This document shows, in pieces, positions 26,880 to 28,300 of a stretch of 35,874 nt of DNA. The stretch covers positions 1-35,874 of the IMG/VR virus record IMGVR_UViG_2913172373_000003. One strand, given 5' to 3'. The notes beneath the pieces were generated by a model. It saw only the letters and a list, made by a program, of their open reading frames with translations, was not told where the DNA came from and made no database searches. A program made the position numbers and the translations under genes. How positions within the stretch are numbered: the stretch's first letter is position 1; every line of letters starts with the position of its first letter. Source of the stretch: a virus (taxonomy: Duplodnaviria; Heunggongvirae; Uroviricota; Caudoviricetes).

Positions 26880-27708
26880 GACGATGCCCTCCGCTGATAT
26901 TCAGGAGACGGTGAATATGAAAATTAGCCTTATCCGCCAGACGAATACGTTCAGCCTGCAAGTTAAGAAGGGTTTCTACCAGAACCTGATGCGCCTGCGG
27001 ATCCGAAAGAGTTACCTTGCGCAGAGCACGTAGTGCAGTTGTTACATAACTGAGTTTATGTAAGTCTTCATCATTCAGACGAGTGAGGGCTGGGACAGTA
27101 GCCATGATGGCAGCCTCCGTATGCAATGGATAACTTCCACCACCGGAAACGCCAATTTCGCTGGTGGTGAACTGAGCAGGGTTGGCGTAACCGGCGCATA
27201 CGGAAACCGGCGCACCTTTCGGTGCCCCCACCCAGCCCACCATAATTTGGGTATAGCTGAGTTGTAGCAACAAAAAAGACGCTAACGCGCCAATTGTCGC
27301 CGTATGCAATTCCAGGACGCCAATCCCGGCACCCGCTTTATAAGGTGCCTGAACAGTGTAACGTCCCGGAATGGCAGAATCAATGTGCTGGTGGTCCTTC
27401 ACACTCAACAAAATCACGCCTGAATTTCCACAAAGGACTAAAGCACTCATGCGGGTAGTCTTTGCGAAGATAGATAACGCGCTGTGTTTCTGGCTCCCAA
27501 CGAATAACATGGACATAAAGCCCTCTTCCGTCACGAAACCAGCGGTTAAGTTCCTGCACAACTCGCCCCCCACAGTCAGGTAAAGTTCTCTGTGGTTACT
27601 TACAGCCAGGTGATTTGGTAATCTGCATTCATGCCGTAACAACAGGTGTTCAGCGACACTGACCACCAGCTGTTGCGACAAACGGTTATTTGCCGTTAAA
27701 CTGTTCAT
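26872..27708 (-). CDS. hypothetical protein
   Basis: 278 aa ORF with 4-nt overlaps to neighbours on both sides; protein-like composition; no family recognised. Confidence 0.45.
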   Translation of the reverse strand: MNSLTANNRLSQQLVVSVAEHLLLRHECRLPNHLAVSNHRELYLTVGGELCRNLTAGFVTEEGFMSMLFVGSQKHSALSIFAKTTRMSALVLCGNSGVILLSVKDHQHIDSAIPGRYTVQAPYKAGAGIGVLELHTATIGALASFLLLQLSYTQIMVGWVGAPKGAPVSVCAGYANPAQFTTSEIGVSGGGSYPLHTEAAIMATVPALTRLNDEDLHKLSYVTTALRALRKVTLSDPQAHQVLVETLLNLQAERIRLADKANFHIHRLLNISGGHRHA

Positions 27709-28073
27709 GCGTTAGTTTCTCCACAGACACAAAACGCCACGACGCCCGGAGCTGCACACTCGCGGGCGTCACTCTTTTCTGGAGCGCAAAAGATTTTGTA
27801 GACCAGTGCTGCATGCTCCTGGAGCTTCGAAATTGACAGATACAACTCATCATTAATTGCTGTCTGCTCGTGTGGCTCCACTACCCCATCTTCGATTGCC
27901 GAACGAATCTGCTTTGAGTAACTCCCGATCTGTTCGATGACTTCCAGCAGGCGCTGGTTTATATCGGCGTTCTCTACTTCCTCAATTTCAGGAAGCGATA
28001 CAAACACCCCACCAGCAGACTGTGCGACAGCATCCGCAATGTAGTGAGTGCCAGCCGCGCGCTGTAAAATCAT
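27705..28073 (-). CDS. CII/YdaT-like regulator, C-terminal part of a gene apparently broken by a frameshift
   Basis: 122 aa ORF; the reading frame continues upstream (...YAEAAEWLDVTENALFNRLRADGDQIFPLGWA, HTH-like) until a C8 tract at 28170-28177, beyond which a 35-codon ORF from ATG 28269 is in another frame. Confidence 0.45.
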   Translation of the reverse strand: MILQRAAGTHYIADAVAQSAGGVFVSLPEIEEVENADINQRLLEVIEQIGSYSKQIRSAIEDGVVEPHEQTAINDELYLSISKLQEHAALVYKIFCAPEKSDARECAAPGVVAFCVCGETNA

Positions 28074-28300
28074 TGCCCATCCCAGCGGGAAAATCTGATC
28101 GCCATCTGCACGAAGGCGGTTGAATAAAGCGTTCTCTGTTACATCCAGCCACTCAGCAGCTTCAGCGTACCCCCCCCGGCAACGCCGCGATAGTTTTTCT
28201 GACAGCTTTCACGTACCACTCAGGCTGTTTTTCTACTTTCCAGTGATGCTTACCCACGGTTAGCCTCATCGTTCTGTGGTTAAAAATTGAAGGTGTTCTG

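Follow-up and report, generated by a model that had tools for sequence, protein, structure and literature searches.

A G8 run at a recurrent indel hotspot interrupts the reading frame of the prophage gene ymfL

Introduction

CII-type regulators are required in phages lambda and 186 to establish lysogeny, and not to maintain it. Within the immunity regions of functional temperate phages related to the DNA studied here, the corresponding gene is known as gp43 in cdtI, orf36 in SfV and 'cII' in SfII, and it is also present in Stx2c and Stx2a phages; in Escherichia coli genomes it is annotated as ymfL. Frameshifted copies of ymfL are already known, since RefSeq/PGAP labels them 'protein YmfL, frameshifted', for example in ZH177 (ACOS73_RS20500), p11A (G6P89_RS05980) and ECZP248 (ENE68_RS17215). 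A run of seven Gs (G7) is a classical hotspot for slipped-strand mispairing, and in the poly-G phase-variable genes of Neisseria, Haemophilus and Campylobacter the length of a coding G run toggles the reading frame. In the thymidine kinase of herpes simplex virus, gain or loss of one G in a coding run of seven Gs (the 'savior indel') is offset by very low-level frameshifting, which the run itself can support (PMC5009743). Regarding YmfL itself, its over-expression does not cause filamentation, ymfM being SfiC (bioRxiv 10.1101/2020.11.19.390815); this filamentation test is the only experiment on YmfL that our literature search found.

Here, we describe a copy of ymfL in a 35.9-kb stretch of caudoviral DNA (IMG/VR record IMGVR_UViG_2913172373_000003, 35,874 nt), hereafter the window. 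The window shares the immunity-region synteny of the functional temperate phages listed above but differs from them in its tract, which is in frame in those phages and reads G6T in SfV and cdtI. It resembles the RefSeq frameshifted pseudogenes in carrying a 1-bp length change in the same tract of the same gene. The ZH177 allele is identical to that of the window, whereas p11A carries a +1 change on a G6T allele and ECZP248 a -1 change (G6), and the surrounding prophages are different mosaics. The locus is thus an unremarkable case: a known prophage gene turned into a pseudogene by a frameshift at a recurrent hotspot, or possibly only miscalled in its homopolymer.

A single extra G splits ymfL in the window

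The features of the region and the evidence used to place them are as follows.

28170..28177, minus strand: G8 homopolymer (window sequence and allele alignment)
28162..28257, minus strand: 5' fragment of ymfL (PGAP start in relatives, alignment and Shine-Dalgarno energy)
27705..28169, minus strand: 3' part of ymfL in the other frame, from TAC (Tyr30) to the stop at 27707-27705 (ORFs, family matches and AlphaFold2 model)
28301..28501, minus strand: ymfT, a Cro-like YdaS-family HTH gene of 66 aa (weak Pfam YdaS_toxin/HTH_3 matches and PGAP)
28592..29266, plus strand: ymfK-like CI-type repressor of the LexA family with Peptidase_S24, 224 aa (Pfam PF00717, E 1.5e-26)

On the minus strand, the window carries a run of eight Gs at 28177-28170 (C8 on the plus strand), which is its sole homopolymer of at least 8 nt and its longest G/C run. 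A TGA at 28164-28162, just 3' of the run, closes a short ORF, and deletion of one G yields, in the computed translation, a single ORF of 187 codons plus stop that ends at 27705. An earlier, sequence-only reading of this DNA had described the same interruption, and its positions for the upstream ATG, the G8 run, the TGA and the downstream 122-aa ORF were all confirmed, as was its expectation of a fused protein of about 188 aa. Its core proposal, that an HTH regulator gene of the immunity region is broken by a +1 homopolymer frameshift, is likewise supported by the family evidence. Both the Pfam model Phage_CP76 (residues 21-154 of the repaired protein) and the NCBIfam model YmfL (residues 20-160) cross the frameshift junction, and the short ORF and the 122-aa ORF are therefore not chance neighbours. 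Moreover, near-identical DNA with one G fewer encodes the intact 183-aa 'protein YmfL' (WP_000515860.1) in many genomes. Since the family is encoded as one ORF and the window copy is interrupted by the TGA, this copy is a pseudogene of the family.

Comparison of alleles placed the extra base precisely. The intact G7 allele reads CCG GGG GGG TAC, that is, Pro-Gly-Gly-Tyr, and the window exceeds it by one G within the codons for Pro27, Gly28 and Gly29 of YmfL. The start codon had to be revised. The ATG at 28269-28267, taken as the start in the sequence-only reading, is not accompanied by a Shine-Dalgarno sequence and is missing from O157-type alleles, whereas the GTG at 28257-28255 has GAGG upstream, with a predicted duplex energy of -5.6 kcal/mol against +0.2 kcal/mol for the ATG. 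This GTG is invariant across an alignment of eight alleles in which the upstream ATG varies, and PGAP uses the equivalent GTG in KP63, NR3736 and K-12. With the conserved start at the GTG, the 5' fragment comprises 31 codons rather than 35, namely 29 native codons followed by Val-Arg and then TGA.

Both the complete HTH and the helical hairpin of the C terminus are encoded by the 3' part, and the 122-aa ORF within it (27705-28073) opens at an internal Met that falls in helix 4 of the AlphaFold2 secondary structure. We rejected the idea that the 122-aa protein is natively encoded from a start of its own: among 30 homologues none encodes this part alone, all being full length, and every orphan copy that was examined follows a disrupted 5' part, whether the damage is an indel in the tract, a frameshift elsewhere, an inserted IS element or a deletion. 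The internal ATG at 28073 is preceded by GGGAUGGG, with a predicted anti-Shine-Dalgarno pairing of -6.9 kcal/mol that lies at about the 5th-10th percentile of the local background, and translation of the broken gene might conceivably begin here, giving a C-terminal fragment that lacks the HTH.

YmfL resembles the CII regulator of phage 186

The repaired protein scored 169 bits against the YmfL equivalog model NF041471 of NCBIfam (cutoff 90, residues 20-160) and 55.3 bits against Pfam PF06892, Phage_CP76 (gathering score 26, E 8.5e-15), and was assigned to phrog_101, 'CII-like transcriptional activator'. In a megablast search of 5,426 complete E. coli genomes, the stretch was present in 2,715, annotated as ymfL and adjoining ymfT, with up to four ymfL copies per genome. 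An AlphaFold2 model built on 30 homologues had a pLDDT of 70 overall and was confident over residues ~11-80 (pLDDT 80-93). This region precedes a long helical hairpin and contains five helices, two of which (29-37 and 41-48) form a helix-turn-helix. These two helices correspond to the HTH-like segment that had been noticed from the sequence.

A Foldseek search of the PDB returned structures of the phage 186 regulator (6vli/6vpe/6vmh) as its best eight matches, with probabilities of 0.94-1.00, E values of only ~1e-2 and target TM scores of 0.39-0.66. As a PDB sequence search with the repaired protein gave no match at E ≤ 10, the link to 186 CII comes from the fold search, which alone connected the protein to the PDB. 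Since the 186 structures head the fold matches and neither lambda CII nor YdaT is found among them, the protein is a regulator of the 186 CII type and not of the YdaT type. Two other labels were considered and rejected: lambda CII is absent from the top 50 fold matches and gave no sequence match in the PDB at E ≤ 10, and for YdaT, Pfam gave no family other than Phage_CP76 at E ≤ 0.01 and the fold matches included no entry. YdaS (8c7k) ranked only 35th in the fold search, at a non-significant E of 3.4. Thus, of the original label 'CII/YdaT-like', the first half stands in its 186 form, on PF06892, PHROG 101 and Foldseek, and the second half falls.

Like 186 CII, YmfL combines an N-terminal HTH domain with a helical C-terminal part, and its gene follows a cro-type gene in the early lytic operon. 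Unlike 186 CII, which belongs to a P2-like element, ymfL sits in a lambdoid phage, and the two proteins share only ~15-20% identity in structural alignments of modest TM; the activator role of YmfL is putative. From homology and gene position, we infer that YmfL would activate the establishment of lysogeny after infection. A simple scan of the first part of ymfL (its 5' end) for a promoter dependent on CII gave no promoter-like site above background.

ymfL lies in a lambdoid immunity region

The neighbourhood is a lambdoid immunity region of the e14/SfV/cdtI type. ymfT lies directly upstream of ymfL in the same operon, and relatives carry the identical protein (WP_000649477.1, PGAP). The repressor, named 'LexA family protein / ymfK' by PGAP in relatives, is divergent from ymfT-ymfL, which is the gene position expected of the YmfL family.

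Downstream of ymfL, a 278-aa ORF (26872-27708, minus strand) starts at an ATG overlapping the ymfL stop (ATGA). It is probably an over-extension: the long version is annotated in SfV and by Prodigal-type callers, and PGAP in relatives instead calls a 59-aa DUF4222 protein (27380-27559) and a 181-aa ash protein (26872-27417). Two Rfam families match on the minus strand just downstream of ymfL, the C4 antisense RNA (RF01695, 80.7 bits) at 27160-27247 and the Hfq-binding sRNA isrK (RF01394, 61.2 bits) at 27272-27348. Both matches lie inside the ORF called 'ash family protein' by Pfam and PGAP, which in relatives is fused to a Rha/antirepressor domain. This arrangement suggests an antirepressor control module like immI of P1, and the 'ash' ORF may in part represent an RNA locus.

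The full-length form is conserved and the homopolymer is not

The sequence-only reading had proposed a comparison of tract length in related prophages; in that comparison, intact copies proved to be one G shorter (G7) or to have an interrupted run. Our allele alignment contained G7 in KP63 and O157, G6 in ECZP248, G7T in p11A and interrupted runs in K-12 and Ec050. Intact alleles other than G7 use synonymous or near-synonymous codons, CCG GGG GGT or CCG GGT GGT, and K-12 has CCG AGT GGT. A gapped-pattern scan of IMG/VR, in which the tract was defined as the nucleotides between GTTGCC and TAC, returned 120 loci, all with a 7-nt tract and all in frame. The tract was GGGTGGT in 58 loci, GGGGGGT in 44, GGGGGGG in 14 and another sequence in four. 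With only 14 of the 120 copies carrying G7, the homopolymer itself is not conserved and G7 is the minority state.

The protein, in contrast to the homopolymer, is maintained. All 30 homologues, down to 60% identity and from genera including Klebsiella, Salmonella, Citrobacter, Pantoea and Edwardsiella, are full length and keep P-G-G-Y, and their N-terminal half is strongly conserved. Three loci were found in a scan of species-representative genomes, all in frame, and the repaired protein of the window has the same sequence as cdtI gp43. Given that the 30 homologues, the 120 IMG/VR copies, SfV and cdtI are all in frame, full-length YmfL is the selected form.

Frameshifts recur at the tract but remain rare

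Out-of-frame tracts were found in the following sequences, in which numbers with L denote loci of our collection.

G8: window, ZH177, L130, L132, L135 and L138
G7T (+1 on the G6T allele): p11A, L136 and L139
G6 (-1): ECZP248 and Stx2c_PV98-693

The tract is therefore an indel hotspot that shifts both ways and on different prophage backgrounds. Among the complete E. coli matches, ZH177 is the one genome with the same G8; its copy is annotated 'frameshifted', and it is identical to the window only over 27659-28536, the structural genes being different. L130 and L138 are Logan assemblies of SRA runs, and L132 is an NCBI assembly of 2012 with a different cro/cI. Outside ymfL, identity between the window and the other G8 loci is only 95-97%, which makes these independent assemblies and not one clone sequenced repeatedly. 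The exact orphan 122-aa product was found at ten places, six of which are broken at the tract; the remainder comprise two frameshifts elsewhere in the 5' part, one IS3-family insertion and one deletion, so that the tract shift accounts for six of the eight frameshifted orphan loci.

Several individual loci deserve mention. In L131 (GCA_964052205.1), an IS3-family element at 1559-2920, with transposase ORFs matching HTH_Tnp_1 and rve and a 3-bp duplication (TAC), lies immediately 3' of the G6T tract and is another independent knockout of ymfL at the same spot. L133 and L137 carry frameshifts outside the G run (+C in GCTGC(C)TGAG, and T4 to T3 in CAGATTT(T)CCC) that yield the same orphan 122-aa call. 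Among about a dozen Stx2c prophage records that are nearly identical, Stx2c_PV98-693 (L142, LC727876.1) has G6 in place of 7 nt at about 273-400 of the locus, which truncates YmfL after PGG and might matter for lysogenisation by that Stx phage. Broken copies also appear to have entered protein family collections: phrog_7487 matches residues 66-187 of repaired YmfL and phrog_8690 residues 5-53, both with 'unknown function', and the 122 positions of phrog_7487 equal the length of the orphan ORF. These two families look as if they were built from frameshifted copies of the CII-like activator of phrog_101.

The broken state is infrequent. Exact 80/81-nt haplotype queries gave one G8 against 55 G7, but classified only 56 of 2,486 records because of SNPs in the flanks, and were supplemented by an evenly spread genome sample and the gapped pattern. 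In the evenly spread sample of complete genomes, 2 of 60 were out of frame, whereas none of the 120 IMG/VR copies was, and contigs with the exact protein numbered 36 for the orphan 122-aa fragment against at least 1000 for the intact form. Taken together, the out-of-frame state makes up roughly 2-3% of copies or less.

Origin and consequences of the eighth G

The window allele is probably a real null allele that arose at the DNA level, by insertion of a G into G7 through replication slippage. The same G8 in several independent assemblies shows that the allele exists in nature. The competing explanation with most to be said for it is an assembly or base-calling error, in which the true DNA would be G7, ymfL would be intact and the eighth G would be a homopolymer-calling artefact. 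Homopolymer indels are the typical error of long reads, the window G8 is the longest G/C homopolymer present, and frameshifts are seen in complete-genome assemblies (2 of the 60 in the sample, which is long-read-heavy, plus ZH177) and not among the IMG/VR contigs. Some of these frameshifts may accordingly be sequencing artefacts, although that last contrast is tempered by the G7 allele being carried by only 14 of the 120 IMG/VR copies. We nevertheless regard an error as unlikely. The window contains 37 homopolymers of at least 6 nt, 34 of which align to relatives, and the ymfL run alone differs in length, none of the other 33 departing from the relatives; a 12.8-kb segment with 99.3% identity to strain NR3736 is free of homopolymer indels; and the identical G8 is shared by five or more independent assemblies with differing prophage backgrounds, including the 2012 NCBI assembly and the Logan contigs, which presumably derive from short reads.

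Two further readings would keep the gene functional. Under leaky or programmed recoding, G8 would still give some full-length YmfL, either because tRNA-Gly slips by +1 on GGG GGG G in the ribosome or because RNA polymerase drops a G, and the gene would be down-tuned rather than dead; the product would then include a peptide spanning LPGGYAEAAEWLDVTENALFNR. A +1 slip on the run would indeed restore the exact wild-type P-G-G-Y, and the G7 run of herpesvirus thymidine kinase, where the same change of one G occurs, provides a precedent (PMC5009743), albeit one from a eukaryotic ribosome and a phenotype selected under drug pressure, whereas any product of the G8 allele of ymfL, and any selection for it, would be hypothetical. 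We consider recoding very improbable, however. At least about 97% of close copies and all 30 homologues are in frame, so the shifted arrangement is not conserved; no stimulatory element was identified; and each G8 allele is a young tip that matches intact alleles exactly over the rest of the gene. Slippage of E. coli RNA polymerase reportedly concerns A/T runs, to go by the title of a 1990 paper by Wagner et al., and our literature search for slippage at G/C runs gave A/T-run data only. The documented cases, which involve A/T runs of seven or more and low efficiency (PMC6260861), likewise speak against the polymerase route. Alternatively, the run could be a contingency locus, that is, a selected reversible ON/OFF switch governing lysogenisation by the released phage. 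In its favour, G6, G7, G8 and the G6T/G7T variants toggle the frame in both directions and on several backgrounds, as in poly-G phase-variable genes, and tract changes are the leading cause of ymfL disruption. Unlike in those genes, the tract is short, its homopolymer is not conserved (14 G7, 44 G6T and 58 GGGTGGT among the 120 IMG/VR loci, and GAGTGGT in K-12) and the OFF state is confined to about 2-3% of copies, which counts against phase variation. A run of seven or eight Gs is, moreover, short for high-rate switching in mismatch-repair-proficient E. coli, and we give a selected switch scarcely any credence. Of the three alternatives raised by the sequence-only reading, the inactivating frameshift is thus favoured, the sequencing error is weakened, and slippage-dependent expression is disfavoured by the lack of conservation of the shifted arrangement.

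With replication slippage as the preferred origin, the consequences can be outlined as follows. One G would have been inserted into the G7 Pro-Gly-Gly run, most likely by slipped-strand mispairing during DNA replication. The extra G cuts YmfL short at native residue 29, within the loop ahead of the HTH, so that no DNA-binding protein is made. Intact YmfL is the 186 CII-type regulator of the ymfK repressor / ymfT cro / ymfL immunity region and, as a CII-type protein, would be needed only when lysogeny is established. Because the need would be limited to establishment, an integrated prophage could presumably carry the null allele at no cost, as a near-neutral variant, and +1 and -1 alleles would therefore recur at a few per cent on different backgrounds without fixation. 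The observed pattern of young, recurrent, bidirectional and rare alleles fits such near-neutral null alleles.

In practical terms, the locus is properly annotated as a frameshifted ymfL pseudogene and not as two small genes, and has little significance beyond annotation. More broadly, prophages of the e14/SfV/cdtI/Stx2c type carry, in the G run that encodes Pro-Gly-Gly of YmfL, a hotspot of recurrent indels that can serve as a sanity check of homopolymer accuracy, and ymfL frameshifts are a likely cause of lysogenisation-defective phage from some lysogens. A more speculative reading, to which we attach a very small probability, is that the run could act as a low-frequency reversible switch or a leaky 'savior indel', and that the orphan fragment may also interfere. 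If it were a switch, lysogens would release both phage able to establish lysogeny and phage defective in it, the latter effectively virulent; if +1 decoding were leaky, a trace amount of CII-type activity would persist. If translated, the orphan of 122 aa that lacks the HTH could interfere with YmfL homologues of co-resident prophages, which is conceivable because genomes carry up to four ymfL copies.

Other features of the window

Programmed -1 frameshifting is expected of tail chaperones of the gpG/gpT type. Upstream of the tape-measure gene, at 6961-7727 on the minus strand, the window has two adjacent tail-assembly-chaperone-like ORFs of 142 aa and 109 aa, which are annotated gpG and gpT in the relative NR3736. 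The lambda slippery heptamer GGGAAAG was not found in these ORFs, and the first of them ends CCGGAAAAGTCCTGA.

Just downstream of the repressor gene, two 1-base insertions in non-coding DNA (plus strand) distinguish the window from both ZH177 and NR3736. They lie at 29278 (TTTAT[G]AACC) and 29366 (GATT[C]AAAC), neither in a homopolymer, and the one at 29278 falls in a terminator-like hairpin at 29278-29297.
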